Positions 1 to 56,260 of a DNA stretch of 56,260 bases are shown here, piece by piece; the stretch's first letter is position 1; every line of letters begins with the position of its first letter. Below the pieces are notes generated by a model. The model was not told the DNA's origin, searched no databases, and was given only the letters and a program-made list of their open reading frames with translations. The translations under genes and the position numbers were made by a program. The stretch is from a phage. The stretch lies in the sequence record PX583170.1. One strand, 5' to 3'.

Positions 1-135
1 CGGACTTAAAATACGGTCCCTACCCCAACTTTTTCCTACAGCCTATCGGCTTAATGATAACACCAAGTTAGGCGCTTCGCTTATGAGTCAAGGTCAAAGG
101 CAATCAGAGCACGCTGTTGTAACGAGCTAGTCTTA

Positions 136-157
136 CCATTAGTTGGTTGTGATTATG
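136..157 (+). promoter_or_regulatory. Promoter-motif copy P1 (candidate phage-RNAP promoter) upstream of the RNAP gene
   Basis: ccATTAGTTGGttgtgattatg; shares the CATTAGTTG core with 13 other sites. Confidence 0.4.
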
Positions 158-214
158 AATAGGCTACGCAAGTCTAATCCGTTTCAGTTAAATCATAATC
201 AATTGGAGACTATC

Positions 215-2329
215 ATGACTAATGAAGAATATCGTGCACTGGCTGCTGATGGCGCTCGCTTAAAAGAAGAAGGCCACGGTTGGAAAGACGTGCTTGATAC
301 GATGGACCGTTGCAACCAAATGGTTGATGAAATCACTACTGCTACACAATCCGAAACTAAAACCGAAACTAACTTGGAGACTCGCAAAATGACAACTATC
401 TCAACTCAAACTATCAAATCCGTTGTCCCTGCTATCACGGCTCTGGTATACCGTGCTAAAGAGAAACAGAACTACATGCAGCCTCAGACCTGTGCTATTG
501 CTGCTCTTGCAATCTTCAAGATGATGACCTCATTCACTCGTGATGATGTTGTCCCAGCCATTGCAATGGTTGAGCTGGCTTCTGCTTCTATTGCTGATGC
601 CAACCGTTATAACAACGATTTGAAAGCAATGCACTATGTTGACCCAGCTATCAACCTCATTGGTTTGGCTAAGCACTTTGGCTTCATTACCATGAACGAA
701 GACAAGTCATTCCAACAAACTGATACATGGGTTGAACTGGTTACAACCAAAGACACAGCAGTGCCATTCACTGAGCGTGTTACATCTGAATCTCGTCGCA
801 AGCCTTTCGTTAAAGGTGGCAAAGTTAAGCCATCCAAAACTTTGAAAGCTGCAATCGAATTCCTGCAAGATACTGAGTACCATGTGGAGACTGAGATGGT
901 TCGCATCATCCAGTCCATGCTTGAGCAACGTACCTACGGTGGTTTGCAGATGCCAGAAGCAATCCAGACTGAACTTCATGTTTGGAACAATGCTGTAGCA
1001 ATGATGAATCAGGATAAGCTGTATTCTGACTACTTTGCTGATAACCGTGGTCGCCTGTATCATGTAGCATGTGCTGGCCCTAACCCACAATCCTCTGACT
1101 TTGCTCGTTGCTTGTATTCTCACAATGTTGAGAACATCGTTAAGAAGTTTAACGAAGATGGTTCTACTACCATCGCATACAACATGTTCATGGCAGAGCT
1201 GGAAGATATTTCTGGTGGTGAATGGTGCAGTGCTAAGCGTTTAACTTATGTTGCTCAGAATCCAGCTGGTTCACTTGCTCGCATGATGAACATGCCTAAA
1301 GCTGAACGTCCTTCCAAGCCATTCACTTATGTTCGTCTGGCTCTGGATTGGTTCAAGTTTGAGACTACAGGTGAGTGCGATTCTCGTGTAGGCTTTGGCT
1401 TAGATGCTAAATGTTCTGGTACTCAATATCTGGCATTCATTGCTGGTAACATGGAAATGGCTCGTGCAACAGGTCTGGTTGATTCTGAGACTAAAGCATC
1501 TGACCCATACCAGTTATCTCTTCGTGAACTGTTGAAGTTACTCGACCGTTCTTCAATGAAGCCATCTCCTGAAATCATGGATGAGTTCTTGAATCCGAAA
1601 GCTGGTCGTAAGTTTATCAAAACTCCATACATGGCTATCCAATATGGTGGTGGTAAAGCAGCATTGACTGGTTCTTCTGACTTCATTAGCTACATGACAG
1701 AAGCTCTCCAGATTCCTATGGAGAAAGCTGAGGCATTTGCTGAACTGTGTGTAGAAGCAATCCATAACGCATTGGGTGCTAAGATTAACATGTTCATCGA
1801 GAAAGCTGCTGATGCTGCATACAATCGTTGTGTTGAACTTGGCAAAGAGTACATCACATATCGCCACACTGATGGTCAGGTTGTAATGAAGCCTTGCTTC
1901 CCATCTCGTGAAATCTGTGAGGCATTCAGCATTCGTGTTGATAGTCAAACTCGTGTTATCTTTGGTCAGATTCAGGAGAACAAGCCTTGGACCATTCGTG
2001 AGTCCAATCCAACTAAAGAAGAGTTCAAGCGTACCTTCGTTGTTAACTACATCCAAGGTATTGACGCATTGGTTGCTCGTACTGTTGCAGTTAAAGCTAA
2101 AGAAGCTGGTCTTCGTGGCTTTACTTCAATTCACGATTGTTTCCGTTGCTGCTTAGCTGATGCTCCACGTATGATGGAAGTTATTCGTGCAGCATATGTT
2201 GAAATCTTCGTAACCAACAATCAATTCGAGAATCTGTCTAAGCAACTCGGTGGCATTCAGATGTATCATGAGAACATCGTAACCGAAGAGCTTCTGATGA
2301 GCGAACATGCTTACTACTTCTGTCAATGA
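215..2329 (+). CDS. T7-like single-subunit DNA-dependent RNA polymerase (ORF opens at 143; ATG at 215 has SD ggaga)
   Basis: Motif A-like FGLDAKCSGTQYLAF (T7 DGSCSGIQHF), motif B-like KFIKTPYMAIQYGGG, motif C-like TSIHDCF (T7 HDSF). Shorter than T7 RNAP. Confidence 0.85.
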   Translation: MTNEEYRALAADGARLKEEGHGWKDVLDTMDRCNQMVDEITTATQSETKTETNLETRKMTTISTQTIKSVVPAITALVYRAKEKQNYMQPQTCAIAALAIFKMMTSFTRDDVVPAIAMVELASASIADANRYNNDLKAMHYVDPAINLIGLAKHFGFITMNEDKSFQQTDTWVELVTTKDTAVPFTERVTSESRRKPFVKGGKVKPSKTLKAAIEFLQDTEYHVETEMVRIIQSMLEQRTYGGLQMPEAIQTELHVWNNAVAMMNQDKLYSDYFADNRGRLYHVACAGPNPQSSDFARCLYSHNVENIVKKFNEDGSTTIAYNMFMAELEDISGGEWCSAKRLTYVAQNPAGSLARMMNMPKAERPSKPFTYVRLALDWFKFETTGECDSRVGFGLDAKCSGTQYLAFIAGNMEMARATGLVDSETKASDPYQLSLRELLKLLDRSSMKPSPEIMDEFLNPKAGRKFIKTPYMAIQYGGGKAALTGSSDFISYMTEALQIPMEKAEAFAELCVEAIHNALGAKINMFIEKAADAAYNRCVELGKEYITYRHTDGQVVMKPCFPSREICEAFSIRVDSQTRVIFGQIQENKPWTIRESNPTKEEFKRTFVVNYIQGIDALVARTVAVKAKEAGLRGFTSIHDCFRCCLADAPRMMEVIRAAYVEIFVTNNQFENLSKQLGGIQMYHENIVTEELLMSEHAYYFCQ

Positions 2330-2370
2330 TATTAATTGGTCAAGGATGACCACAAACTTGGAGACTTATA

Positions 2371-2571
2371 ATGAACATTCAACAAATCAATCAAATCGAA
2401 AACTGTTTCAATCCTCATCATACCTGTGACATGAGCAACTTATCTCGTCCTACAGTGGAGGAGACTAAAGACTTCTTAGAATTGTTAGCAGAATATAAAC
2501 AAGAATCGCATGTACTATTGCATGCATATTTGCACAATTCTGGATACTTTGATACAGAAATACCGTTCTGA
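2371..2571 (+). CDS. Hypothetical small protein (66 aa)
   Basis: ATG with SD ggaga 8 nt upstream; followed by a terminator. Confidence 0.5.
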   Translation: MNIQQINQIENCFNPHHTCDMSNLSRPTVEETKDFLELLAEYKQESHVLLHAYLHNSGYFDTEIPF

Positions 2572-2576
2572 TATTT

Positions 2577-2603
2577 GGGAGCTTCGGCTCCCTTTTCTTG
2601 TTT
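2577..2603 (+). terminator. Rho-independent terminator
   Basis: GGGAGC-ttcg-GCTCCC perfect 6-bp stem with UUCG loop, then ttttcttgttt. Confidence 0.75.
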
Positions 2604-2623
2604 CAACTAAGTCGCATAACTCA

Positions 2624-2645
2624 GCATTAGTTGTATGTGAATCTA
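2624..2645 (+). promoter_or_regulatory. Promoter-motif copy P2
   Basis: gCATTAGTTGtATGTGAATcta, directly after the terminator and 22 nt before the next gene. Confidence 0.5.
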
Positions 2646-2666
2646 ATAAACCATTTGGAGCATATC

Positions 2667-2834
2667 ATGTTTACAGTGACCTTAGTAACCTATTATGGCA
2701 AGCAAGTTTGTGAGAAGTTTGAGACTTTGAAAGAAGCCCGTGAGTTTGCAGCTCGTGAAGAGAATATTTATGTAGACTGTGAAATCACAGATGGTGATAA
2801 GCAGTATGAAGTTGTAGCTCCTACACTCAACTGA
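2667..2834 (+). CDS. Hypothetical small protein (55 aa; ORF opens at 2631)
   Basis: ATG at 2667 preceded by tttggag SD; the earlier TTG start lies inside the promoter motif. Confidence 0.45.
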   Translation: MFTVTLVTYYGKQVCEKFETLKEAREFAAREENIYVDCEITDGDKQYEVVAPTLN

Positions 2835-2848
2835 TTCCCAATATTCGG

Positions 2849-2858
2849 ACAATATTGT
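2849..2858. promoter_or_regulatory. Perfect 10-bp palindrome ACAATATTGT (operator-like)
   Basis: Self-complementary; flanked by aatattcgg and gcatgtaatattgt. Confidence 0.35.
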
Positions 2859-2884
2859 TGCATGTAATATTGTCCCGATATTCG

Positions 2885-2906
2885 ACATTAGTTGGATATG
2901 AAGTAA
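2885..2906 (+). promoter_or_regulatory. Promoter-motif copy P3
   Basis: aCATTAGTTGGATATGAAgtaa; followed by hairpin CGGAG-aaata-CTCCG at 2913..2927; no gene for ~1 kb downstream. Confidence 0.45.
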
Positions 2907-3277
2907 AGAATACGGAGAAATACTCCGCATGACATATTGAATCATTCTAGAAACATTCAGCATGTCAGCTTTGAGTTACAGTGTTGTAATGATGTGGCAA
3001 TCATTGAACTCCCTGGGTAGGCCACCTACAGTTCCAGCAACCATGACACAGAGTAGGAATATCTATCCGAAACTTGTACTTCACCTATAGCATGTCTATT
3101 AGCTACAGTATTGTTCCTTCTCCTATTATCAAGGCCCACCCACAAGCCGGGAGATAACTTTGACAAGACTGGAACTTTTGGACATGCTTCTTTCTTTCTA
3201 CAAGAATTTGAAAGAAGAGAAGAAGTCGGACTAAGCCTCTCGTTTTCACGCAGAAGCCGCCCCGATTTTGAGCAACA

Positions 3278-3294
3278 AATATTGTGACAATATT
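3278..3294. promoter_or_regulatory. 17-bp inverted repeat AATATTGT-G-ACAATATT (operator-like)
   Basis: 8-bp arms are exact reverse complements; 51 bp beyond the repeat end at 3227. Confidence 0.4.
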
Positions 3295-3525
3295 GTCGCA
3301 GTATGGCATGTAAATATTGCTACAAATTGGCATGTTGGAATGTGGCAGAATTGTTAGAGGACTAATCACCTCGAAGATACAATCGTCTACCAATCTGGCA
3401 TGTTAATTTTGTAACAGTATTTGTGCCAATTTCGCATGTAATAGTTGTATCAGTAATGACCCAATATTCTTGCAACCCGCATGAATACTGGCTTCCAGCC
3501 AAGCGAAGGCTTTATCATCGCATGT

Positions 3526-3542
3526 AATATTGTGACAATATT
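3526..3542. promoter_or_regulatory. Second exact copy of AATATTGT-G-ACAATATT
   Basis: Identical 17-mer to 3278..3294. Confidence 0.4.
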
Positions 3543-3716
3543 GGGATAAAACCCTTTATTTAATTAGTTTTATTATGCTGTACATGGTCGGTTTTCCGTA
3601 CCTGCTTGCTCCAATCTTAATGTGCCAAATACGTTAAGTATGGGAGTAAACCTACGTGAACGTAGTGAACAATGACGCATGTTTAATTGTGACAAAATTC
3701 GTCTATTTGGCAGATG

Positions 3717-3735
3717 AATTAGTTGCAATTAAGCA
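3717..3735 (+). promoter_or_regulatory. Promoter-motif variant P4
   Basis: aATTAGTTGcAATtaagca; core retained, 3' half divergent. Confidence 0.3.
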
Positions 3736-3745
3736 TGTCCATTTA

Positions 3746-3767
3746 TCATTAGTTGCATGTGAATAAG
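3746..3767 (+). promoter_or_regulatory. Promoter-motif copy P5
   Basis: tCATTAGTTGcATGTGAATaag; ~190 nt upstream of the first gene of the unique region. Confidence 0.5.
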
Positions 3768-3955
3768 ACCAAATCTCTGTAAACTCTGCTGAAATTGTGT
3801 GACAGATTTTAGAGAGATTATGTCTCCAAGCTAATCATTGTAGTTTTTCGGCACTTGCTGTGTCACATACTCCCTACAACTTTAAGGTGGATTAAGGTAA
3901 GACAAGACCTCCACAATCGTTCTGTAGGGAGTTTTCCTTAACTTAGGAGAATAAA

Positions 3956-4174
3956 ATGACTCGTTTTAAAGATTTGGAAGATGGTGCAATCTTCTTTACG
4001 CGTGGTGGAGAACATCTGCAAAAAGTTTTGGAAGATGATGTTAATGTAAATGCTGTATTCGTTGGTGATTCTAACATTGGTGTTTTATTAAATGACAATG
4101 AGAGAACTTTTACAGAGGAGGAGTTTAAAGAAATCTCAGCCTCTGATTTAGTTCAAGAGCCAATTGAAGTTTAA
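3956..4174 (+). CDS. Hypothetical protein (72 aa)
   Basis: ATG with SD aggaga. Confidence 0.5.
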   Translation: MTRFKDLEDGAIFFTRGGEHLQKVLEDDVNVNAVFVGDSNIGVLLNDNERTFTEEEFKEISASDLVQEPIEV

Positions 4175-4189
4175 TACATAGGAGTAAAC

Positions 4190-4378
4190 ATGGACTTCAT
4201 CGTCTACTTTAAGTTAAATGGTGTGGAGCAAAGATTGTACTTCAATTCTTTACTTCGTTTGCAACAGTGGGCGGAGAAGTTTGTTGGGTATGACTTTGAA
4301 TACATTAACGCATGTACACCTGACGAACATGAAGAAATCGTGTTCAGTTCTTTAAATCAAATTCTGGAGGCCAAGTGA
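4190..4378 (+). CDS. Hypothetical protein (62 aa)
   Basis: ATG with SD aggag. Confidence 0.5.
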   Translation: MDFIVYFKLNGVEQRLYFNSLLRLQQWAEKFVGYDFEYINACTPDEHEEIVFSSLNQILEAK

Positions 4379-4539
4379 AGAAGCTCAAGTATATGACCAA
4401 AACTGTGTCATACATGGCAGCTTACGGTGCTTCAAAGAGACGTGCGAAGAAACTTGCAAAAGCTGCAAACCCTCGTATGCCAGCACGTAAGGTGGCTCAA
4501 ATCATCAATTCAGTATTCGACATATGGAGTATGAAATGA
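4375..4539 (+). CDS. Hypothetical small basic protein (54 aa, GTG start overlapping upstream stop)
   Basis: GTGA start/stop overlap with SD ggagg; Lys/Arg-rich; not in ORF track (<60 aa). Confidence 0.3.
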   Translation: MKKLKYMTKTVSYMAAYGASKRRAKKLAKAANPRMPARKVAQIINSVFDIWSMK

Positions 4540-4709
4540 ACGACCAGCAATTCAACACATTCATGCAGCAGATTAATCATCAAGAACTGATGGAAGCCAT
4601 CAAGGGCAAGAAGCCGGTTGAACGTCAATATCGTAAAATTGATAATTATATGCCAACAATCATTGCATGTGTTGGTGTTGCTATTGTTCTCTACTTCCTG
4701 GTGAAATAA
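4524..4709 (+). CDS. Hypothetical small membrane protein (61 aa)
   Basis: C-terminal hydrophobic stretch PTIIACVGVAIVLYFLV. Confidence 0.45.
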   Translation: MEYEMNDQQFNTFMQQINHQELMEAIKGKKPVERQYRKIDNYMPTIIACVGVAIVLYFLVK

Positions 4710-4802
4710 TGGACATTGTTAAGAAATTAGTATTCTGTATCGTAATGTTCCCTCTGGTGCTGCTCGTTGTGGGCAGCTTCTTAATCTGTTAATAGGTATC
4801 AC

Positions 4803-5096
4803 ATGTCAATTCAGAAATTCCTTGATGTAGCAAATGTTGCTAAGAATTCTATTCCAAGCAATCCCGATATTCTTACCTCAATGCGTGTTGATGTTGCACT
4901 TCTGGCTTTAGCTGGTGAGCACATCAATGCGCTTGAGAAGCAAGTTTCAGATTGCAAAAGTGAAATAACCACTTTGCGTGACCAGATTGCCAGCCAAGAA
5001 GCGGCATATTCTGACCTCATGGATGCGAAAAACCATTTACAGCAACGGCTTGCAGTTGCGCTTGAAGAAATAGACAGACTAACACTAACCAAATAA
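4803..5096 (+). CDS. Hypothetical protein (97 aa)
   Basis: ORF in the unidirectional early gene array. Confidence 0.45.
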   Translation: MSIQKFLDVANVAKNSIPSNPDILTSMRVDVALLALAGEHINALEKQVSDCKSEITTLRDQIASQEAAYSDLMDAKNHLQQRLAVALEEIDRLTLTK

Positions 5097-5111
5097 CAAT
5101 TGGGAGTTATT

Positions 5112-5375
5112 ATGGCTACTAAGACCGGAATGATGATTGTCCCAAGCCGTAATAACTCTTTAAGCGGCTTTACACCATATAAAATCTATGAAGTTATTTC
5201 TGGCACTGGTGAAGCAAACCTGTCAGAAGTTGCTTTGAAGTTGGGCCGTATGGTCCACTCCGAAATCTCCTGTAACGTAGTTGATGATGAAGGTAAAATC
5301 CGTTTTGTAACAATGGATTTCTTTCGTGAATTTAACCTCAAATCTGAGATAGGTGTTTTATATCATGAAATTTAA
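5112..5375 (+). CDS. Hypothetical protein (87 aa; ORF opens at TTG 5100)
   Basis: ATG at 5112 with SD gggag. Confidence 0.45.
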   Translation: MATKTGMMIVPSRNNSLSGFTPYKIYEVISGTGEANLSEVALKLGRMVHSEISCNVVDDEGKIRFVTMDFFREFNLKSEIGVLYHEI

Positions 5376-5592
5376 ATGTGTTGCTTCAACCAAAGATTAT
5401 GTTCCAGTTGGCTTCATCGTTGAAGGTGAAGCTATCTCACCTTTGGAATTTAAAGTGACTAAATCTGCTGAGAATGTTTCTCCAGCATTTCGTAAAGGTG
5501 CTGTAGTGCCTATGAATGGTGCATTCTGGACATGGCAGCGTGACCATGAAGCAGAATTTGCAGATATTTGTGAACAAGGTTTATTGCAATGA
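5365..5592 (+). CDS. Hypothetical protein, paralog of next gene
   Basis: Shares KFKCV-ST, VG-IEGE-I and WTW with the 5589..5819 product. Confidence 0.45.
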   Translation: MKFKCVASTKDYVPVGFIVEGEAISPLEFKVTKSAENVSPAFRKGAVVPMNGAFWTWQRDHEAEFADICEQGLLQ

Positions 5593-5819
5593 CAAAGTTT
5601 AAATGTGTGAAATCAACCTCTTCATCTGAGCACTCTCCGAAAGTTGGAGATGTGATTGAGGGAGAACTTATCCAAGTACACGGAGGTCGTGGATTCCGCC
5701 ACAGAGTGCTTATTTCTAAAGATAGTGACCGAAAAATGCCAGACGGTAAGCCATACTTTTCACTTGGTGAAACAGTTCCCTTAGAAGGTAGTGTTTGGAC
5801 TTGGAAAGAGGTTAAATAA
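5589..5819 (+). CDS. Hypothetical protein, paralog of previous gene
   Basis: MTKFKCVKST...VGDVIEGELI...WTW. Confidence 0.45.
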   Translation: MTKFKCVKSTSSSEHSPKVGDVIEGELIQVHGGRGFRHRVLISKDSDRKMPDGKPYFSLGETVPLEGSVWTWKEVK

Positions 5820-5882
5820 TTTCCTCAACCACTTTTGTAATGAGAGTGGTTGCTGAATATTATTAATCAACTTGGAGCATTT

Positions 5883-6173
5883 ATGAAACAACGTACTCGT
5901 TTACAGCGTGACCCCGCCACAGGCCGCTTGTTACCAGCATATTTGAAAGTTGGTGACTTAGTTTACACTCGTGACTTTGCTTTTGACATTTGCCCAAGCA
6001 AAGCATATAAAGTTCTTGCCACCAGCTTGTCTGGACCTAAAGTAATATTTGGTTCACTTGAGCCAATTCAGCTGACCGGAACCCAATTCGTCATTAAGGA
6101 TGAATCTGGCTGTAACCGAATCTTTAGCCTTGAAGGTGGCCTATCCAAATGGGAGAAGATTAAGCGTGGGTAA
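5883..6173 (+). CDS. Hypothetical protein (ORF opens at 5850)
   Basis: ATG at 5883 with SD ttggag; upstream 8-bp-stem hairpin at 5826..5852. Confidence 0.45.
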   Translation: MKQRTRLQRDPATGRLLPAYLKVGDLVYTRDFAFDICPSKAYKVLATSLSGPKVIFGSLEPIQLTGTQFVIKDESGCNRIFSLEGGLSKWEKIKRG

Positions 6174-6186
6174 GAACTACATAGAA

Positions 6187-6399
6187 ATGTTTAAAAGACT
6201 CGATATCAATGGACAAGAGTTCTTGTTAAACGATGCAAGACAAGATGTGGAGCTGTCTGATAAATATAGCTCCTCGTATCAGAGAACCATTGTAAAATGG
6301 ACGTTCTCTTACATATCCTACAATCTTCCAGGAGAAACGCTTGTGATTAGTGGTTCTGGAGATTCAGTTTTGGCAGCTTTGGAGAAACTAAAGCAATGA
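6187..6399 (+). CDS. Hypothetical protein (ORF opens at 6100)
   Basis: First ATG after the upstream gene stop. Confidence 0.35.
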   Translation: MFKRLDINGQEFLLNDARQDVELSDKYSSSYQRTIVKWTFSYISYNLPGETLVISGSGDSVLAALEKLKQ

Positions 6400-6683
6400 A
6401 CAAGAATTCAATCTTACGTTATGTTGGTAAAACAAACTACAACTTTACCAACGGTAAGAAATACAAAATCGTCGCAGGTCGTGGTGACGGGGTTCCTCGC
6501 AACAACGGTACACTCGGTGCGTATATTCAATCTCCTTTGGGTTTTGTCGTTAATGACGATAACCGCAATTTATGTTATCGTACATTCTCCGATAATTGGG
6601 AACTTGTGAAAGATTCTGGCGAAGTCAGTTGGTATAAACCTGAATCAAACATGGACCCAATTCCAATTTCAAAGATGATGTAA
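6396..6683 (+). CDS. Hypothetical protein (95 aa)
   Basis: ATGA start/stop overlap with previous gene. Confidence 0.45.
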   Translation: MNKNSILRYVGKTNYNFTNGKKYKIVAGRGDGVPRNNGTLGAYIQSPLGFVVNDDNRNLCYRTFSDNWELVKDSGEVSWYKPESNMDPIPISKMM

Positions 6684-6723
6684 ATTAACAAGGAGCATTC
6701 ATTGAGTGTTCCTGATTAATCTA

Positions 6724-6745
6724 ACATTAGTTGAATGTGAATAAC
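6724..6745 (+). promoter_or_regulatory. Promoter-motif copy P6
   Basis: aCATTAGTTGaATGTGAATaac, 18 nt before the next gene. Confidence 0.5.
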
Positions 6746-6762
6746 AACTTTTGGAGGTATTT

Positions 6763-7284: not shown

Positions 7285-7319
7285 TTATCAGGGTGCATTT
7301 ACGAGTGTACCCGAATAAT

Positions 7320-7340
7320 CCAATTAGTTGGATAAGAGGG
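7320..7340 (+). promoter_or_regulatory. Promoter-motif variant P7
   Basis: ccAATTAGTTGGATaagaggg. Confidence 0.35.
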
Positions 7341-7409
7341 ACAAAGCTATTCCGTGGTTAGCAATGTCGCTGAAACTTAAACTGTAATTAACTTAAGAGA
7401 ATCTTAATC

Positions 7410-7787: not shown

Positions 7788-7908
7788 TGGAGATGCCCTA
7801 TGAAAATCTTATGTTTTATAGGGCTACATAATTGGGAAATTTCACACGAAAACGATTATGTAACCATTTGGGTTTGCAAACACTGTGCAGCAATGCGTGA
7901 GGAATATC

Positions 7909-8811: not shown

Positions 8812-8999
8812 TTAACAGAGGTCATTCCACTTCGAGTGGCCTCGATTAATTATTGGAGGTTATATGTGGGACATATATCTTGAAGGTGTTGATGAACCAA
8901 TTTCAACACTTAATACACAATTTATTATAGTTGGGTGTGCAATTCTTTATAAAGGTAAGCTACACACTGTATCTAAAATAGTTCAGAGGCATTAATTCC

Positions 9000-10230: not shown

Positions 10231-10250
10231 CTTCATCAATGGAGCATCCG

Positions 10251-12908: not shown

Positions 12909-12909
12909 A

Positions 12910-15240: not shown

Positions 15241-15269
15241 CCCACTTTCAACAATAACATGGAGTCCTC

Positions 15270-46355: not shown

Positions 46356-46356
46356 C

Positions 46357-48146: not shown

Positions 48147-49540
48147 TGGCAATTCGTCCTAAACTGAACCGAGTCTGGACCTCAAACAACTCTGTCGCAA
48201 GACGTGACCCAGGAGATGAAAAATATCTCAAGGGTTGGGTTGCGGAGATTCCGACCTATCAGGTTCTTAACTACCTGCAATATAAGATTGACACCACAAT
48301 GCTTGCACAAGCAGAACGTGGAATCTTTGAGTGGGGCAGTGATGTAAGTTATGGCGTTGGTAGTTTGGCTTGGGACGAAACAAACAAAACTATTTATGTT
48401 TGTACTGTCGCCAGCCCTAACAAAACACTACGCCCAAGTGCAAACTCTGCACAGTGGAGTCCTAGCTCCATCCAAGTTTCTCGTGCGAATTACGACTCAA
48501 TTGTTGCAGCAATAAATGCACACATTGCAGACGTAACCACAAACCCGCACAAAGTAACTGCTGCACAAATTGGTGCATACAACAAGTCCGAACTGGATAA
48601 TATTGTTGCCAACTACCGTGCAATGGTTCAAGCACACGTAACGGATTACAACAACCCGCACAAACTTACTGCAACTCAGGTTGGTGCTGTTCCTGCAGCT
48701 GGTGGCGCATATACTGGTGAAGTTACTTTCACAGCTGTGTATCTGAATGATTCCAAGACTGCCCAGATTGTTAACGACGGTGGTCTATATATTCGCAATG
48801 GTAGCTACTATCTTGGAATCAATGGAACTACAGGCAATGCAGAAACTGGCACTGCCTCAAGTAAGTCTAATATTGTTACGGAACTAGGCTTCCCAGATGT
48901 GAAGGCAGCGCAAGAGCCAAGATATGCTGTTGAACTTCCGGCATATGAAATGCCGCTTATTAAGTCTGTAAACATTCTTCGTGGCGCTGGGATTTTCAAC
49001 ACGTTTGCAACAGAACCTGCTTACAACGAGGCTCTTGGTGGGGCACTGGCTTTTGTATCTCCGGATGCTGGTTCTTCGGGAATAAACTGGTACAACGATG
49101 CGCAGTTGTCGAATGGTTCCATGTACACGATATGTGCAGACTATACGAAGATTGCTCAAGACGGTGCGGATGGTAGCTGGCAATTTGGCTTTGGCATGGA
49201 AACCTTGAAGGTTCTTGTATGTTTTGACGGTGGCGTCCTTCTGCGATATCGAAACCCGTCAGGGGTCCTTGTAAACACTTCCAAGGTTATCAGTCCTGCT
49301 GTCGCAACTGTTGGGAAATGGTCCAGAATTTGCGTAACAGTGTCAGACAGCACTGCAAGAATATTTGTTGACGGTGTTATTGTAGCCCGACACAGTATTC
49401 CAGGCATAGATTCCAACAACCGTCGGCCAACACTATCGACGTGGACCAAATCTTCTGCCGTTACAAGGGCAGAGTTTGCTGCACGGTCTTTTCGTATTTG
49501 GGACAGTGCGCTGTCAAATGAACAAGTTTCAACTTTATAG
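48146..49540 (+). CDS. Putative tail fiber protein (ORF opens at 48095)
   Basis: ATG 48146 overlaps upstream stop with SD gtgagg; repeated NPHK(V/L)TA(A/T)Q(I/V)GA segments. Confidence 0.45.
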   Translation: MAIRPKLNRVWTSNNSVARRDPGDEKYLKGWVAEIPTYQVLNYLQYKIDTTMLAQAERGIFEWGSDVSYGVGSLAWDETNKTIYVCTVASPNKTLRPSANSAQWSPSSIQVSRANYDSIVAAINAHIADVTTNPHKVTAAQIGAYNKSELDNIVANYRAMVQAHVTDYNNPHKLTATQVGAVPAAGGAYTGEVTFTAVYLNDSKTAQIVNDGGLYIRNGSYYLGINGTTGNAETGTASSKSNIVTELGFPDVKAAQEPRYAVELPAYEMPLIKSVNILRGAGIFNTFATEPAYNEALGGALAFVSPDAGSSGINWYNDAQLSNGSMYTICADYTKIAQDGADGSWQFGFGMETLKVLVCFDGGVLLRYRNPSGVLVNTSKVISPAVATVGKWSRICVTVSDSTARIFVDGVIVARHSIPGIDSNNRRPTLSTWTKSSAVTRAEFAARSFRIWDSALSNEQVSTL

Positions 49541-49548
49541 GATTCAAA

Positions 49549-50574
49549 ATGGCTAAAGGTTACTCTTTAGATGCCCTCGTTCTAGAACGTTGGTCCAGAT
49601 ATGCAACTCCGATTGGCATTCGTACAGACATAAATAAGTTAGATGGTGTTGATAATGCAGGCATCTATATGGTGTCTTCAAACAGTGCCGCAGGAACTAT
49701 TAATGGTCTGCCAGTTAAGATGGCTGGAGTTTTAGAGGTCCTTCCCTGGACAGCTACAGGACAGAGTATTCAAAGGTATACTGTATATAATACCTCAGAG
49801 GAATACTCAAGAACTGAAACTGGTGAACCAGGCCTGTGGACGGATTGGCGTAAGAAAATAGATGTAAGGAACGTTTTCGATGCCATTTACCCAATCGGCA
49901 TTGTTCTCCAGTTTGACAACGCCACCAACCCGAACAACATGTTCACCGGTACTGTGTGGGAACAAATTGTAGATGGTCGTTCTTCCCGTGCTGCAACTGG
50001 CCCAGAGGCAGGCACAACTGCTGGTCAGATTGGTTCAGTAGGTGGGTCTGATACCGCCACAATTGCTGTAGCCAACCTACCAGGCCACACGCACGGAATG
50101 CAAAACCACACCCACGGTATTGCAGCCCACTCGCACACAATGGCCCACACTCACACCATTAACCACGACCACGGTGCGGTAACATCAAGTTCATCTGGCA
50201 ACCATGCGCACAGTGTAAGTGGAAGTACGTCATCTGCTGGGGACCACACGCACTCAATAGGTGGGGCCGTCTCTGTTGCTGCTGGCGGTGGTGCCACCAT
50301 TAACCAAAACCAAAGTGGTGTAAACACTCGCTCTGCTGGTGCTCACACACACTCAATAAGTGGGTCTACCAACTCTACTGGCGCTCATGCACACACTGTG
50401 GACCTTCCAAACTTCACAGGTACAAGTGGTGGCTCTAGTGCGGGTAGCACTGGCGGCACGGCACTGACCACTGGTGGCCCTAGTAACAATGAAACGACCT
50501 CAACTGGCAGCGGGACCGCACTGAATGTGTGTAACTCTGTACACTACTATGCCTTCTGGAAACGGACGGCTTAA
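49549..50574 (+). CDS. Tail fiber / receptor-binding protein with His-x-His repeat tip
   Basis: GHTHGMQNHTHGIAAHSHTMAHTHTINHDHG...GNHAHSVSG...GDHTHSIGG...GAHTHSISG...GAHAHTV. Confidence 0.5.
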   Translation: MAKGYSLDALVLERWSRYATPIGIRTDINKLDGVDNAGIYMVSSNSAAGTINGLPVKMAGVLEVLPWTATGQSIQRYTVYNTSEEYSRTETGEPGLWTDWRKKIDVRNVFDAIYPIGIVLQFDNATNPNNMFTGTVWEQIVDGRSSRAATGPEAGTTAGQIGSVGGSDTATIAVANLPGHTHGMQNHTHGIAAHSHTMAHTHTINHDHGAVTSSSSGNHAHSVSGSTSSAGDHTHSIGGAVSVAAGGGATINQNQSGVNTRSAGAHTHSISGSTNSTGAHAHTVDLPNFTGTSGGSSAGSTGGTALTTGGPSNNETTSTGSGTALNVCNSVHYYAFWKRTA

Positions 50575-50581: not shown

Positions 50582-50923
50582 ATGGAACGCTTATCCATTC
50601 AGATGTTTGTGGACCTAATGCACCAATATGGCGTATGGCATGGATTATTGGCTGGCCTAACGGCTTTAATCCGTGGGGCATATGAAAGCGAAGGCTTAAG
50701 CAAGGCGCTGCTGGATGCGGCGCTGTGCAGCTTAATCGGACTGTTTGCCTTTCATGTCGCTGGTACATTTGAAACCTTCACAACTAATGTCACTATGCAG
50801 TTAGTTCTGGCTATCGTGATTGGTGTCATCGGTGCAAACCTCATTATCACAACTGTCAGGGAAAGTTTCTCTGGCGCAATCAAACAACTTAATCCTTTGA
50901 CGTGGTTCAAGAAGGCACGATGA
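50582..50923 (+). CDS. Putative holin (ORF opens at 50525)
   Basis: ATG with SD taaggaaa; three hydrophobic segments; directly upstream of endolysin. Confidence 0.5.
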   Translation: MERLSIQMFVDLMHQYGVWHGLLAGLTALIRGAYESEGLSKALLDAALCSLIGLFAFHVAGTFETFTTNVTMQLVLAIVIGVIGANLIITTVRESFSGAIKQLNPLTWFKKAR

Positions 50924-50940
50924 AATGATAAGGAACCCGA

Positions 50941-51495
50941 ATGCTATCATTCAAAGTCCTTGCAGTTCTGGCAGCTTTAGTTCACATCAACGCCCCAGCT
51001 TCGGTTGGGGCAGTGAATTCTGCTATTACAGATTTTGCAAGTCATTCTTATTTAAATGGAAGTCTGAAACTATCTTCTTCACAACGCAAAGAGCTAGAAT
51101 GCTACACTAAAGTTATCTGGTATGAAGCTCGCGGAGAAGACAAACATGGAAAGATTCTGGTAGCTAATGTCGTCCGTAATAGAACAGAGTTCGGGAAGCC
51201 ATTCGCTAACACCGTTTGTGATGTTGTCTATCAACGCAATCAATTTGCATGGACACGAGAAGCAAAGAAGAAGAATGCCCAATGGAAGCATGTAGCAAAG
51301 ATTAATTATGCCACAGAACAACAACAAGTTCTGGACACTATTAATGTTGCAATCTCTTTTGTATTATTTAATCAACCCTCTGTCACCAAAGCAACCCACT
51401 TTTGTACAGCATCGGAGAAGTGCAACTTCAAGAATGTTAAAGGTTTGGGACGTTATGGTGGTCATAAATTCTATGAGTATCTAGGAAATCTGTAA
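50941..51495 (+). CDS. Endolysin, SleB-like cell-wall hydrolase with N-terminal signal or SAR segment
   Basis: [24 protein letters not shown]; core [28 protein letters not shown]. Confidence 0.6.
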
Positions 51496-52595
51496 TGGCT
51501 TACACTACCTTTTCACAAACCAAGAATAACCAACTACTGGAGCCAATGTTCTTTGGTCAGAACGTTAACGTTGCTCGATATGACCAACAGAAGTACAGCA
51601 TCTTCGAGAAGTTAATCGAGAAGCAGTTATCTTTCTTTTGGCGACCTGAGGAGGTTGATGTTAGCCAGGACCGAATTGACTATGCTGGTCTGCCTGAATG
51701 CGAGAAGCACATCTTTACCAGCAATTTACGATACCAAATCCTGCTTGATTCCATTCAGGGACGTGGACCAACCACAGTTTTGCTGCCAATTGTGAGCATT
51801 CCTGAGCTGGAAACTTGGATTGAAACTTGGTCATTCTCAGAGACAATTCACTCCCGTTCTTACACACATATTATTCGTAATATTGTTACAGACCCGAGTG
51901 TCATTTTCGACGAAATTGTGGAGAATGAGCACATTAAAATGCGTGCAATCGGCATCTCCCAATATTATGACGAGCTTCAACATCTAACTTCCATGTGGCA
52001 TCTGCATGAAGATAAAGTTTCTCTTCGTGAGCTTAAGAAGAAGCTGTATTTATGCCTCATGTCCATCAATGCACTGGAAGCAATCCGCTTTTACGTCAGT
52101 TTTGCTTGCTCATTTGCCTTCGCTGAACGCAAGTTAATGGAAGGAAATGCCAAGATTATTCGGCTAATTGCTCGTGATGAAGCACTTCATTTGACAGGAA
52201 CTCAACACATGCTGAACCTTCTTGCAAGCGGTGTTGATGACCCAGAAATGGCAGAAATTGCTAAAGAATGTCGTGAAGAATGCCAGAAATTGTTCGAAGA
52301 TGTGGCCCAACAAGAGAAAGATTGGGCCGATTATTTGTTCAAAGATGGCTCAATGATTGGCTTAAACAAGCAAATTCTGTGCGGATATGTGGAATATATC
52401 ACGAATATTCGTATGCAAGCAGTTGGATTGGATGCTCCATTCAAAGGTGCTACTAACCCGATTCCTTGGATTAACGCATGGTTGAATTCGGATGCTGTAC
52501 AAGTTGCTCCACAAGAAACGGAGATTAGTTCGTACCTTGTCGGGCAGATTGACTCCGAAGTGGACACCAATGCCCTGGGCGGATTTGAGCTGTAA
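51495..52595 (+). CDS. nrdB: Class Ia ribonucleotide reductase beta subunit (NrdB); no NrdA in the window
   Basis: Near-collinear with E. coli NrdB as recalled ([11 protein letters not shown]...[11 protein letters not shown]...[16 protein letters not shown]...[17 protein letters not shown]...GQIDSEVDT). Confidence 0.85.
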
Positions 52596-52701: not shown

Positions 52702-53168
52702 AAGAGTAATATTAGGAATGCGTAAAGTTCAAAACCAAATGGTACATGGTCGGTCAACTGTACCTCCTTCGGAGAAGGTACCTGGATAGAAATTCGTTCA
52801 TGGTCGGTCAGCTGTATCTAGCCGAAATTTGTTCGAACAGTTGTCTGACTATGAAATAAATTTTTTTTTATAATTTTTTTTTTATTTTTAAATATTGCTA
52901 CAGAATTAATGAGACTAGAATTCGTAACAAAGCTACGAGACTCGAATTGTTTCAATATTAACGAGACTCAATCTGTGACAATATTATAATTTTTATTTTT
53001 GGGCCAGCGGGGAGGGGAAGCCCAACGTCCTATCGGACTTAAAATACGGTCCCTACCCCAACTTTTTCCTACAGCCTATCGGCTTAATGATAACACCAAG
53101 TTAGGCGCTTCGCTTATGAGTCAAGGTCAAAGGCAATCAGAGCACGCTGTTGTAACGAGCTAGTCTTA

Positions 53169-53190
53169 CCATTAGTTGGTTGTGATTATG
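53169..53190 (+). promoter_or_regulatory. Promoter-motif copy P1 (right repeat copy)
   Basis: Identical to 136..157. Confidence 0.4.
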
Positions 53191-53247
53191 AATAGGCTAC
53201 GCAAGTCTAATCCGTTTCAGTTAAATCATAATCAATTGGAGACTATC

Positions 53248-55362
53248 ATGACTAATGAAGAATATCGTGCACTGGCTGCTGATGGCGCTCGCTTAAAAGA
53301 AGAAGGCCACGGTTGGAAAGACGTGCTTGATACGATGGACCGTTGCAACCAAATGGTTGATGAAATCACTACTGCTACACAATCCGAAACTAAAACCGAA
53401 ACTAACTTGGAGACTCGCAAAATGACAACTATCTCAACTCAAACTATCAAATCCGTTGTCCCTGCTATCACGGCTCTGGTATACCGTGCTAAAGAGAAAC
53501 AGAACTACATGCAGCCTCAGACCTGTGCTATTGCTGCTCTTGCAATCTTCAAGATGATGACCTCATTCACTCGTGATGATGTTGTCCCAGCCATTGCAAT
53601 GGTTGAGCTGGCTTCTGCTTCTATTGCTGATGCCAACCGTTATAACAACGATTTGAAAGCAATGCACTATGTTGACCCAGCTATCAACCTCATTGGTTTG
53701 GCTAAGCACTTTGGCTTCATTACCATGAACGAAGACAAGTCATTCCAACAAACTGATACATGGGTTGAACTGGTTACAACCAAAGACACAGCAGTGCCAT
53801 TCACTGAGCGTGTTACATCTGAATCTCGTCGCAAGCCTTTCGTTAAAGGTGGCAAAGTTAAGCCATCCAAAACTTTGAAAGCTGCAATCGAATTCCTGCA
53901 AGATACTGAGTACCATGTGGAGACTGAGATGGTTCGCATCATCCAGTCCATGCTTGAGCAACGTACCTACGGTGGTTTGCAGATGCCAGAAGCAATCCAG
54001 ACTGAACTTCATGTTTGGAACAATGCTGTAGCAATGATGAATCAGGATAAGCTGTATTCTGACTACTTTGCTGATAACCGTGGTCGCCTGTATCATGTAG
54101 CATGTGCTGGCCCTAACCCACAATCCTCTGACTTTGCTCGTTGCTTGTATTCTCACAATGTTGAGAACATCGTTAAGAAGTTTAACGAAGATGGTTCTAC
54201 TACCATCGCATACAACATGTTCATGGCAGAGCTGGAAGATATTTCTGGTGGTGAATGGTGCAGTGCTAAGCGTTTAACTTATGTTGCTCAGAATCCAGCT
54301 GGTTCACTTGCTCGCATGATGAACATGCCTAAAGCTGAACGTCCTTCCAAGCCATTCACTTATGTTCGTCTGGCTCTGGATTGGTTCAAGTTTGAGACTA
54401 CAGGTGAGTGCGATTCTCGTGTAGGCTTTGGCTTAGATGCTAAATGTTCTGGTACTCAATATCTGGCATTCATTGCTGGTAACATGGAAATGGCTCGTGC
54501 AACAGGTCTGGTTGATTCTGAGACTAAAGCATCTGACCCATACCAGTTATCTCTTCGTGAACTGTTGAAGTTACTCGACCGTTCTTCAATGAAGCCATCT
54601 CCTGAAATCATGGATGAGTTCTTGAATCCGAAAGCTGGTCGTAAGTTTATCAAAACTCCATACATGGCTATCCAATATGGTGGTGGTAAAGCAGCATTGA
54701 CTGGTTCTTCTGACTTCATTAGCTACATGACAGAAGCTCTCCAGATTCCTATGGAGAAAGCTGAGGCATTTGCTGAACTGTGTGTAGAAGCAATCCATAA
54801 CGCATTGGGTGCTAAGATTAACATGTTCATCGAGAAAGCTGCTGATGCTGCATACAATCGTTGTGTTGAACTTGGCAAAGAGTACATCACATATCGCCAC
54901 ACTGATGGTCAGGTTGTAATGAAGCCTTGCTTCCCATCTCGTGAAATCTGTGAGGCATTCAGCATTCGTGTTGATAGTCAAACTCGTGTTATCTTTGGTC
55001 AGATTCAGGAGAACAAGCCTTGGACCATTCGTGAGTCCAATCCAACTAAAGAAGAGTTCAAGCGTACCTTCGTTGTTAACTACATCCAAGGTATTGACGC
55101 ATTGGTTGCTCGTACTGTTGCAGTTAAAGCTAAAGAAGCTGGTCTTCGTGGCTTTACTTCAATTCACGATTGTTTCCGTTGCTGCTTAGCTGATGCTCCA
55201 CGTATGATGGAAGTTATTCGTGCAGCATATGTTGAAATCTTCGTAACCAACAATCAATTCGAGAATCTGTCTAAGCAACTCGGTGGCATTCAGATGTATC
55301 ATGAGAACATCGTAACCGAAGAGCTTCTGATGAGCGAACATGCTTACTACTTCTGTCAATGA
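53248..55362 (+). CDS. T7-like single-subunit RNA polymerase, second copy
   Basis: Protein identical to 215..2329. Confidence 0.85.
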   Translation: MTNEEYRALAADGARLKEEGHGWKDVLDTMDRCNQMVDEITTATQSETKTETNLETRKMTTISTQTIKSVVPAITALVYRAKEKQNYMQPQTCAIAALAIFKMMTSFTRDDVVPAIAMVELASASIADANRYNNDLKAMHYVDPAINLIGLAKHFGFITMNEDKSFQQTDTWVELVTTKDTAVPFTERVTSESRRKPFVKGGKVKPSKTLKAAIEFLQDTEYHVETEMVRIIQSMLEQRTYGGLQMPEAIQTELHVWNNAVAMMNQDKLYSDYFADNRGRLYHVACAGPNPQSSDFARCLYSHNVENIVKKFNEDGSTTIAYNMFMAELEDISGGEWCSAKRLTYVAQNPAGSLARMMNMPKAERPSKPFTYVRLALDWFKFETTGECDSRVGFGLDAKCSGTQYLAFIAGNMEMARATGLVDSETKASDPYQLSLRELLKLLDRSSMKPSPEIMDEFLNPKAGRKFIKTPYMAIQYGGGKAALTGSSDFISYMTEALQIPMEKAEAFAELCVEAIHNALGAKINMFIEKAADAAYNRCVELGKEYITYRHTDGQVVMKPCFPSREICEAFSIRVDSQTRVIFGQIQENKPWTIRESNPTKEEFKRTFVVNYIQGIDALVARTVAVKAKEAGLRGFTSIHDCFRCCLADAPRMMEVIRAAYVEIFVTNNQFENLSKQLGGIQMYHENIVTEELLMSEHAYYFCQ

Positions 55363-55403
55363 TATTAATTGGTCAAGGATGACCACAAACTTGGAGACTT
55401 ATA

Positions 55404-55604
55404 ATGAACATTCAACAAATCAATCAAATCGAAAACTGTTTCAATCCTCATCATACCTGTGACATGAGCAACTTATCTCGTCCTACAGTGGAGGAGACTA
55501 AAGACTTCTTAGAATTGTTAGCAGAATATAAACAAGAATCGCATGTACTATTGCATGCATATTTGCACAATTCTGGATACTTTGATACAGAAATACCGTT
55601 CTGA
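55404..55604 (+). CDS. Hypothetical small protein, second copy
   Basis: Identical to 2371..2571. Confidence 0.5.
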   Translation: MNIQQINQIENCFNPHHTCDMSNLSRPTVEETKDFLELLAEYKQESHVLLHAYLHNSGYFDTEIPF

Positions 55605-55609
55605 TATTT

Positions 55610-55636
55610 GGGAGCTTCGGCTCCCTTTTCTTGTTT
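55610..55636 (+). terminator. Rho-independent terminator, second copy
   Basis: Identical to 2577..2603. Confidence 0.75.
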
Positions 55637-55656
55637 CAACTAAGTCGCATAACTCA

Positions 55657-55678
55657 GCATTAGTTGTATGTGAATCTA
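55657..55678 (+). promoter_or_regulatory. Promoter-motif copy P2 (right repeat copy)
   Basis: Identical to 2624..2645. Confidence 0.5.
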
Positions 55679-55699
55679 ATAAACCATTTGGAGCATATC

Positions 55700-55867
55700 A
55701 TGTTTACAGTGACCTTAGTAACCTATTATGGCAAGCAAGTTTGTGAGAAGTTTGAGACTTTGAAAGAAGCCCGTGAGTTTGCAGCTCGTGAAGAGAATAT
55801 TTATGTAGACTGTGAAATCACAGATGGTGATAAGCAGTATGAAGTTGTAGCTCCTACACTCAACTGA
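55700..55867 (+). CDS. Hypothetical small protein, second copy
   Basis: Identical to 2667..2834. Confidence 0.45.
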   Translation: MFTVTLVTYYGKQVCEKFETLKEAREFAAREENIYVDCEITDGDKQYEVVAPTLN

Positions 55868-55917
55868 TTCCCAATATTCGGACAATATTGTTGCATGTAA
55901 TATTGTCCCGATATTCG

Positions 55918-55939
55918 ACATTAGTTGGATATGAAGTAA
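55918..55939 (+). promoter_or_regulatory. Promoter-motif copy P3 (right repeat copy)
   Basis: Identical to 2885..2906. Confidence 0.45.
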
Positions 55940-56260
55940 AGAATACGGAGAAATACTCCGCATGACATATTGAATCATTCTAGAAACATTCAGCATGTCA
56001 GCTTTGAGTTACAGTGTTGTAATGATGTGGCAATCATTGAACTCCCTGGGTAGGCCACCTACAGTTCCAGCAACCATGACACAGAGTAGGAATATCTATC
56101 CGAAACTTGTACTTCACCTATAGCATGTCTATTAGCTACAGTATTGTTCCTTCTCCTATTATCAAGGCCCACCCACAAGCCGGGAGATAACTTTGACAAG
56201 ACTGGAACTTTTGGACATGCTTCTTTCTTTCTACAAGAATTTGAAAGAAGAGAAGAAGTC

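Follow-up and report, generated by a model that had tools for sequence, protein, structure and literature searches.

The 56,260-bp linear DNA of sequence record PX583170.1 (referred to as the window, meaning this whole stretch) is, with very little room for doubt, the full packaged genome of a virulent Escherichia coli myovirus of the genus Carltongylesvirus (family Chaseviridae, phiEcoM-GJ1 group), with both copies of its terminal repeat written out. It is composed of 53,033 unique bp and one additional 3,227-bp repeat copy, matching the ~53 kb with long terminal repeats that had been expected in the original prediction made for this DNA. The architecture, in which the genes of a contractile tail are combined with a T7-type single-subunit RNA polymerase (RNAP), is already described, and the genome joins a known genus as a new member. 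Potential novelty is confined to a feature outside what the original prediction had noticed, namely a ~200-nt RNA element resembling transfer-messenger RNA (tmRNA) at positions 14316–14520. All features described below are located on the + strand, unless stated otherwise.

Genome identity and taxonomic rank

The window was searched in three parts by Megablast against 50,697 phage records, a collection reaching up to August 2025. All three parts returned matches in the Chaseviridae exclusively, comprising ~40 Escherichia and Yersinia relatives, and no unrelated family supplied a best match. The best matches are Carltongylesvirus members, with 88–96% identity and 85–98% query cover. For bases 1–25000, these are TH53, Bp7, and ST32 (94.4–94.7% identity, 90–91% cover); for bases 25001–50000, EcoM1 and ST32 (94.3–94.5% over 98%) and SA91KD (96.1% over 95%). 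The phiEcoM-GJ1 genome, taken by segment, aligns at 91–92% identity over 87–91% of the query. At least 80% of bases 1–25000 is covered by 39 records, and 20 records span most of the right part. Remoter matches (60–80%) belong to chaseviruses of Erwinia, Pectobacterium, Proteus, Pantoea, Aeromonas, and Dickeya. The record PP952070.1, entitled “Staphylococcus phage Pel53” (host S. hyicus), matches at 88% identity with 87% query cover; its host label looks wrong.

Whole-genome similarity was calculated as blastn identity multiplied by the aligned fraction over the 53,033 unique nt, using four full genomes. It amounts to 0.897 for ST32, 0.885 for TH53, 0.828 for phiEcoM-GJ1 (abbreviated GJ1), and 0.812 for Mangalitsa, all of which exceed the usual genus line of 70%. 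The aligned share of the unique genome is 96% at 93.5% identity for ST32 and 91% at 91% identity for GJ1, bearing out the phiEcoM-GJ1-like identity that had been named in the original prediction. At the protein level, a tblastn search with 79 ST32 proteins revealed complete synteny with the window. The core proteins (RNAP, DNA polymerase, primase/helicase, large terminase subunit TerL, major capsid protein, and portal) are 98.9–99.8% identical to those of ST32, with individual values of 99.5% for the RNAP, 99.8% each for the primase/helicase and the DNA polymerase, 99.7% for TerL, and 99.1% for the major capsid protein; the tape-measure protein and the sheath follow at 97.8% and 94.2%, respectively.

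GC content varies between 39 and 48%, and the cumulative GC skew climbs steadily along the genome. Every gene having a homologue sits on the + strand, in agreement with the strictly unidirectional layout originally proposed. Among the ten longest minus-strand open reading frames (ORFs; 132–363 amino acids), none has a meaningful PHROG match, the single weak one being to a family of unknown function. The longest of them, with 363 amino acids at 32604–33695, runs antisense to the major capsid gene, is without a PHROG match, and is probably a shadow ORF.

According to the 2022 profile of the family by the ICTV, the international committee for virus taxonomy, Chaseviridae are myoviruses with a linear, double-stranded DNA genome of 52–56 kbp, which is terminally redundant and non-permuted, with ~3-kbp repeats, and which encodes a large single-subunit RNAP as well as its own DNA polymerase and helicase/primase. 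In the window, the genes for a contractile tail, the size and the repeats, the single-subunit RNAP, and the DNA polymerase and helicase/primase are all found. The same profile draws the species line at >95% nucleotide identity over the genome length, terminal repeat included. This line is missed by the best value among the four genomes computed in full (0.897, ST32), and the per-segment figures for EcoM1, SA91KD, Bp7, and JL1 (90–91% × 94% and 94–98% × 94–96%) are likewise all below 0.95. Within the limits of a collection ending in August 2025, these values make the genome a species-level lineage of its own in Carltongylesvirus. The alternative that the phage is just another isolate of an existing species, e.g., Carltongylesvirus ST32, could appeal to the core proteins, which are 99–100% identical to those of ST32, and to the identity of the aligned DNA; given the whole-genome value for ST32, the lower ones for the other three genomes, and the segment figures, we consider it unlikely, with the caveat that a closer record newer than August 2025 is possible.

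Nothing was found that contradicts the assignment to Carltongylesvirus itself. Several points nevertheless weigh against taking the record at face value as the genome of such a phage. With both repeats counted, it is 260 bp over the quoted range of 52–56 kbp; the physical ends, the virion morphology, and the promoter use go beyond what a sequence can show; for chasevirus promoters, the ICTV profile reports that none has yet been identified, so that the motif described below is a predicted one; and the portal gene as written is disrupted, so that a phage encoded by this sequence would not be viable if the stretch were correct.

Terminal repeats and genome ends

The left direct terminal repeat (DTR) extends over 1–3227 and contains the RNAP gene; the right DTR at 53034–56260 is an exact copy (0 mismatches), with the second RNAP gene at 53248–55362. 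The boundaries coincide to the base with those of the JL1 record (55,571 bp), which has an exact repeat of 2,995 bp in both copies. The JL1 repeat starts with CGGACTTAAA..., identical to the repeat start in the window, and ends with ...GAAGAGAAGAAGTC, which is also the repeat end in the window, where the left DTR is written as closing with ...GAAGAAGTC. They lie, moreover, within 5 nt of the terminus of Mangalitsa, whose record has a PhageTerm-predicted, 3,234-bp direct terminal repeat at its position 1. Base 6 of the window corresponds in the alignment to Mangalitsa base 1; ahead of the right repeat, the window matches the Mangalitsa right end. In the Mangalitsa announcement, the terminal-repeat pattern is reported as common to the group. 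The pentamer CGGAC occurs at both repeat boundaries (1–5 and 3228–3232; TCGGACT with flanks), likewise in JL1, and the repeat can, therefore, equally be written as 6–3232. This pentamer may be part of the terminase cutting signal. Terminase would cut concatemers at fixed sites, thereby duplicating the 3.2-kb end, and the window would be the finished record of the packaged molecule.

It has to be asked whether the identity of the ends could be an assembly or circularisation artefact, in which a contig has been wrapped round without any physical repeat. Copies that are 100% identical are what an overlap artefact would give, several relatives have been deposited without the second copy or as circular records (e.g., ST32), and the same record has a probable assembly error in its portal gene. 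Assembly overlaps, however, are k-mer sized rather than 3.2 kb long, the start and end of the repeat are exactly those of the JL1 repeat, the Mangalitsa terminus within 5 nt is read-derived, and Chaseviridae are described as terminally redundant and non-permuted, leaving the artefact a very improbable explanation. That the window might be a chimera, with the left arm of a T7-like podovirus misassembled onto the right arm of an unrelated myovirus, would suit its T7-like transcription and replication genes next to structural genes resembling Pam3, E217, and XM1, but can practically be dismissed, given the identical join and gene order in dozens of phages that were sequenced independently and belong to several genera and hosts, the single relatives that span both arms (39 records most of the left, 20 most of the right), and the ICTV profile, where this very combination is a defining feature of Chaseviridae.

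A tmRNA-like RNA element

The element at 14316–14520 is unannotated and directly follows two long hairpins (H1 and H2). Its tag frame at 14390–14419 encodes ANDSEMRVAA and is closed by a TAA stop at 14420–14422; the region reads ...AAAAUAAAU GCA AAU GAU UCU GAA AUG CGA GUU GCG GCU UAA.... Counterparts are located in the related loci L012 (474–648), L013 (338–545), and L014 (548–735). Across the 11 sequences of alignments A6 and A7, drawn from three phage families, the Ala-Asn-Asp start, the 10-codon length of the frame, and the stop are kept without exception, with seven different tags represented and no conserved start codon upstream. The sequence AUAAAU|GCAAAYGA, which leads from upstream into the tag, is near-invariant. 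Conservation includes Carltongylesvirus, Loessnervirus (Y2, SNUABM27), Faunusvirus, Ackermannviridae (Magnus, PC3, cp16), and Felixounavirus (Felix O1, E9); the tags of the other phages are ANDNEMRAAA, ANDSEMRVDA, ANDSEMRMVA, ANDDVVLMAA (Klebsiella phage Magnus), ANDSEVLMAA, ANDNTFLAVA, and ANDNVFLAVA (Felix O1). Frames of this kind have the form of a tmRNA tag, which in E. coli is ANDENYALAA. Downstream, two hairpins covary, eight of the 14 predicted pairs being compensatory and the loops invariant, e.g., UGAUUAAUAA.

In a permissive Rfam search of six loci, the element matched tmRNA families and, apart from chance hits in the window (E > 1), no others; the tmRNA matches score 12–26.5 bits with E-values down to 1.7e-4 and are all below the gathering score. 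With ARAGORN, no tmRNA was detected in the window or in three related loci, and a tRNA-like domain, which would consist of an acceptor stem with G3-U70, a T arm, and CCA, was revealed by neither ARAGORN nor Rfam. A possible helix closing the 5′ and 3′ parts was obtained by duplex folding in some members.

The element, compared with bacterial tmRNA (ssrA, including its two-piece and permuted forms), has in common with it the A-rich AUAAAU leader, the GCA resume codon, the 10-codon frame beginning with Ala-Asn-Asp, a tag that ends in small or hydrophobic residues and is followed by the stop, and a hairpin enclosing the stop with further hairpins after it. Unlike bacterial tmRNA, it has no tRNA-like domain that could be found, reaches 18–26 bits versus gathering scores of 47–50, is ~200 nt in size, is preceded by a long hairpin instead, and is carried by virulent phages of three families. 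Of the hallmarks of a tmRNA, the mRNA-like domain is present and the tRNA-like domain was not found.

Three ways of supplying the missing part or a partner were considered and abandoned. A two-piece form, in which a downstream atypical tRNA would serve as the tRNA-like domain, was rejected on the ground that the tRNA genes located downstream are not the same ones in Felix O1, E9, Faunus, SNUABM27, and the window. The hairpins H1 and H2 were likewise rejected as a permuted acceptor/T domain, as they fold as simple rods. Finally, a 7-nt complementarity between 14322–14328 and the insert of the tRNA-like gene was dropped, being post hoc and not conserved.

Taken together, the element appears to be a tmRNA-related RNA without the tRNA-like part. 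Most likely, it would interfere with trans-translation of the host or make use of it. In a 2014 survey of tmRNA genes, phage ssrA was reported in mycobacteriophages, Bacillus phage G, and DS6A only, and in the literature collection searched, no paper linking tmRNA to Chaseviridae, Ackermannviridae, or Felixounavirus was found. The further-reaching proposal that 14046–15270 is a stable-RNA locus whose core, 14316–14520, represents a previously undescribed, tmRNA-derived class of phage RNA acting on host ribosome rescue, whether as a decoy, by working in trans with the host tmRNA-SmpB complex, or as a template changing the degradation tag, is put forward tentatively, at somewhat less than an even chance.

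Hairpins, tRNA-like gene, and ORF-poor regions

In Chaseviridae, Ackermannviridae, and Felixounavirus alike, the element adjoins tRNA genes and is preceded by long hairpins. In the window, 14140–14335 folds into two such hairpins (fold z-score −6.2), H1 at 14146–14229 and H2, immediately adjacent, at 14230–14320, with stems of ~20 bp; counterparts are situated in the related loci L012 (383–482) and L015 (301–400). An 82%-identical copy of H2 is contained in the tRNA clusters of Felixounavirus, following tRNA-Ile in Felix O1 and E9. In nine of its 35 pairs, both sides have changed and still pair, and the G-U pairs fit the + strand only. In close relatives, H1 and H2 behave as modules that may be there or missing. 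The long hairpins ahead of the element look like RNase III substrates and may be processing sites in long phage transcripts.

At 15149–15241, the locus contains an atypical, Arg-UCG-like tRNA-like gene with 22 nt inserted between its acceptor arm and its D arm, a homologue of the phiEcoM-GJ1 gene annotated as “tRNA-Arg, may contain an intron”. It reaches 27.9 bits with the Rfam tRNA model versus a gathering score of 29 and is not called by ARAGORN, by which no tRNA was detected in the whole window; Rfam at gathering scores gave no match in the whole window either. A window-specific, 116-nt insert at 14597–14712, flanked by 30-nt direct repeats, and a 1-nt gap at 14934 in comparison to ST32 and GJ1 both lie within what is annotated in relatives as small ORFs (ST32 gp33, gp34). 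Downstream, compensatory changes are found in hairpins, e.g., CCCACAAAGGTGGG in the window versus ATCTACAAAGGTAGAT in ST32 and GJ1. These neighbouring changes suggest that ORFs of the ST32 gp33/gp34 type are really part of a structured RNA.

Overall, ~4 kb of the genome is without a convincing ORF, distributed over 2834–3956, 11308–12310, 14046–15270, and 15790–16626. Even in comparison to Mangalitsa, these stretches are among the best conserved (0.94–0.99 versus a genome mean of 0.86). Conservation of 11308–12310 and 15790–16626 is confined to Chaseviridae; 14046–15270 differs in that pieces of it match other phage families. This stretch, not flagged in the original prediction, is the under-described part of the genome, consisting of conserved non-coding RNA. 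The ORF-poor stretch 2830–3760 spans the repeat boundary and has at least five palindromes of the AATATTGTGACAATATT type, and 11308–12310 contains three tandem promoter-like sites, reminiscent of a T7-type origin.

RNA polymerase and transcription signals

The RNAP gene at 215–2329 encodes a protein of 704 amino acids; its ATG at 215 is preceded by GGAG. The assignment as a single-subunit RNAP, already made in the original prediction, is upheld by the Pfam profile RNA_pol (PF00940, 68.6 bits versus a cut-off of 22), by phrog_414 (329 bits), and by catalytic motifs aligning to T7 RNAP, specifically DAKCSGTQY to D537-GSCSGIQH (motif A) and IHDCF to IH811-D812-SF (motif C). The segment RKFIKTPYMAIQYGG presumably corresponds to T7 motif B, R-x3-K-x7-YG. 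A phmmer search against the PDB gave no match at E ≤ 0.001, and at E ≤ 10 the top matches were weak ones, to T7 RNAP (E = 0.004) and mitochondrial RNAPs; family membership, therefore, rests on the Pfam and PHROG profiles and on the motifs.

A putative phage promoter motif with the core CATTAGTTGGAT.TGA is first found at 137–154, upstream of the RNAP gene itself, and the other 11 of the 12 unique sites start at 2625, 2886, 3747, 6725, 7322, 11379, 11519, 11656, 13615, 21557, and 41669. The nine “putative phage promoters” annotated in phiEcoM-GJ1 have the common core ACATTAGTTGGATGTGA, and the motif of the window matches them. Allowing up to two mismatches, the core occurs 23 times in the window versus 6.4 times expected; with at most one mismatch, the 12 unique sites on the + strand stand against a single one on the − strand. 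Strand bias and syntenic positions recur in GJ1, ST32, TH53, and Mangalitsa.

A sigma-70-type promoter-like site at 52958–52990 aligns to the sole host-type promoter annotated in phiEcoM-GJ1 (364–393 of that genome). The site sits 44 nt upstream of the right DTR, with a fully conserved, GC-rich hairpin behind it. Within 1–214, no sigma-70-like site was detected on the + strand; there, the left repeat copy has the phage-type site at 137 only and lacks a counterpart. As the host-type promoter lies outside the repeat, it precedes the right-hand RNAP copy only, and, judged by position, the two copies of the gene in virion DNA would not be equivalent. An 11-nt match between the hairpin upstream of the repeat and the E. 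coli type I-E repeat of clustered regularly interspaced short palindromic repeats (CRISPR) was set aside as being at chance level by estimate.

From what is known of T7, together with the gene content and motifs observed here, we infer a programme in which host RNA polymerase would make the phage T7-type RNAP, which would then read the remaining genome from the CATTAGTTGGAT.TGA promoter-like motif, all genes being read from left to right; the T7-type set of primase/helicase, family-A polymerase, 5′-3′ exonuclease, and ligase would copy the DNA.

Head genes

The terminase large subunit (Terminase_6C) is encoded at 26625–28643, followed by the portal gene at 28858–30466, which is split into two ORFs (28858–29364 and 29285–30466), both matching Phage_portal_3. 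The duplication of the portal seen in the original prediction is real at the level of sequence; it is not a gene duplication, rather a 292-nt stutter that splits the ORF. Compared with every relative, the gene has 292 extra nt, and a 743-nt query across the region aligned to 451 nt in all 46 matching records. The stutter occupies 28993–29486, where the segment 28993–29194 is followed by exact partial copies at 29194–29345 (the initial 152 nt of the segment) and 29346–29486 (its nt 62–202), which amounts to a frame-preserving step of 201 nt and a frame-breaking step of 91 nt. A search of IMG/VR for both junctions gave no match and hence no independent assembly in support. Because the copies are perfect, an essential gene is broken, and the arrangement is absent from relatives and from IMG/VR, the stutter is probably an assembly error; a defective variant is possible.

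Next in line are a protease/scaffold gene (30435–31499, DUF2213), the cement protein gene (31509–31982, Phage_cement), and the major capsid gene (32613–33620, Major_capside), whose product matches the Pam3 capsid in the PDB. The heptamer C_CCA_AAG is a classic −1 slippery sequence. It is present at 31970–31976, where the cement gene closes with ...GTC CCA AAG CCG TAA, and makes this a candidate −1 frameshift site, since the −1 frame is open over 193 codons (31970–32557) with no start codon of its own near the 5′ end. Site and open frame are conserved in GJ1, ST32, TH53, and Mangalitsa, in which the frame has 99 codons and one repeat; in the window, the extension comprises two 94-amino-acid repeats, the tandem copies of 282 nt being 77% identical. 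Frameshifting would append these repeat domains to the cement protein. The domains gave no Pfam or PHROG match, and a single-sequence AlphaFold model (all-beta, predicted local distance difference test score 46) was too poor for confirming the fold. The ST32 counterpart, gp56, is labelled “Ig domain containing protein” in RefSeq; given the lack of a profile match and the poor model, the “Ig-like” designation was not confirmed and derives from that label alone. The section 33667–37280 contains head-tail connector genes, the tail (neck) terminator, the sheath, and the tube; a DUF4054 protein also belongs to the structural set.

Contractile tail

The contractile-tail gene set named in the original prediction—sheath, tube, chaperone, tape measure, and baseplate—finds support in Pfam, PHROG, and the PDB. 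The sheath gene (35366–36814) matches DUF3383 (216 bits), phrog_205 “tail sheath”, and the sheaths of Pam3, XM1, and phi92 in the PDB; the tube gene follows at 36825–37280 and the tail assembly chaperone gene (Phage_TAC_15) at 37292–37750. Within the latter, the slippery sequence T_TTT_TTC at 37648–37654 leads into a −1 frame that is open to 37926 (91 codons), reaching the start of the tape-measure gene. This had been singled out as an unusual frameshift candidate; the site is there, but it is a conserved feature of the family, kept together with its −1 frame in GJ1, ST32, TH53, and Mangalitsa, whose annotations list the piece behind the site as a small ORF of its own. This is the standard G/GT arrangement of tail chaperones.

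The tape-measure-like virion protein (37910–41635, 1241 amino acids) has a YqaJ/lambda-exonuclease-type domain (amino acids 468–604) and an SLT transglycosylase domain (amino acids 1061–1152). The nuclease-type region (amino acids 455–650, ~39200–39900) is complete, aligning to exonuclease 3syy (E = 1e-7) with SPDG...E-x-K (PD...ExK) kept. From 41709 to 50574 extend the genes for the baseplate hub, a Dit-like protein, plug, spike, gpW-like and Baseplate_J-like wedge proteins, a DUF2612 protein, and three tail fibres; hub, spike (N-terminal domain PF18352), gpW-like, and wedge proteins are within 41709–46998. The “P2-like” baseplate of the original prediction holds insofar as gpW/gpJ-family proteins are present, but the closest solved baseplates are those of E217, XM1, Pam3, and phi92, for which wedge proteins are available in the PDB. 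The virion would have a capsid of the Pam3/E217/XM1 type, and its contractile tail would carry a simple baseplate of the gpW/gpJ type.

Early, replication, and lysis genes

A block of small early and middle genes occupies 3956–14046. Among them is a DprA-like gene (6751–7284, phrog_768), which has no nucleotide match in GJ1, ST32, TH53, or Mangalitsa and is found in flopper and Ecp_YSF (97% amino acid identity) and in Faunus and Aeromonas phage phiA050 (80%) only; on account of this patchy presence, it is a mobile accessory gene of Chaseviridae. The block also encodes a single-stranded DNA-binding protein (SSB; 7410–7787, PHROG SSB families), a peptidase-type endolysin (9832–10230), and an anti-restriction protein (10516–11076). 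The SSB tail to which attention had been drawn is present, though not as an oddity, its C-terminus DFDDDIPF being the canonical SSB tip.

A spanin pair is encoded at 15419–15788 (i-spanin 15419–15655, overlapping lipoprotein o-spanin 15579–15788). The module for nucleotide metabolism and T7-type replication (16913–25995), with proteins 99–100% identical to ST32, includes the primase/helicase (17568–19331, Toprim and DnaB_C/AAA_25 domains), the family-A DNA polymerase (19397–21331, DNA_pol_A), ThyX, a 5′-3′ exonuclease, an HNH endonuclease, a ligase, a deoxynucleoside monophosphate kinase-like protein, and a dUTPase. At 50582–52595, a holin, an endolysin (Hydrolase_2), and the small subunit of ribonucleotide reductase are encoded, the small subunit being the only one identified.

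Comparison with known systems and significance

Gene order, coding on one strand, the RNAP gene in a ~3-kb repeat, the promoter-like motif, both −1 slippery sites, the ORF-poor RNA region, and the lysis genes are common to the window and ST32, TH53, phiEcoM-GJ1, and Mangalitsa, with 86–94% identity within aligned DNA. In contrast to these four, the window has the DprA-like gene, two repeat units after the cement gene instead of one, the 116-nt insert, a divergent third tail fibre (66% amino acid identity), and the portal stutter; compared with phiEcoM-GJ1, it is without three HNH endonuclease genes (GJ1 gp34, gp36, gp47).

Shared with T7 and the Autographiviridae are a PF00940 RNAP with its catalytic motifs, promoter-like phage repeats on one strand, direct terminal repeats with fixed ends (predicted ones in the window), and a replication set comprising a gp4-type primase/helicase, family-A DNA polymerase, 5′-3′ exonuclease, and ligase. 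Unlike in T7, the RNAP, which is very distant, has 704 rather than 883 amino acids, the tail is contractile instead of short, and the repeat is 3.2 kb long and holds the RNAP gene. The terminal repeat of T7 has 160 bp and is non-coding. Sheath, Baseplate_J-type wedge, cement, plug, and major capsid homologues are shared with Pam3 (cyanophage), E217 (Pseudomonas), XM1 (Vibrio), and phi92, a remote relationship with E-values of 1e-11 to 1e-35; none of these four phages is known to have a single-subunit RNAP.

Since the window belongs to a described family, annotations from phiEcoM-GJ1, ST32, and Mangalitsa can be carried over to most of its 56 kb. As for the portal “duplication”, it should be handled as a problem of the sequence and not as biology. 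The position of the host-type promoter outside the repeat, by which the RNAP copies in virion DNA would be non-equivalent, may be useful to specialists. More generally, the seemingly “empty” regions of Chaseviridae are the most conserved DNA of these phages, with structured RNAs, one of which is tmRNA-like and recurs across phage families. If confirmed, this tmRNA-like RNA would open a new way of studying how ribosome rescue is handled by virulent phages.

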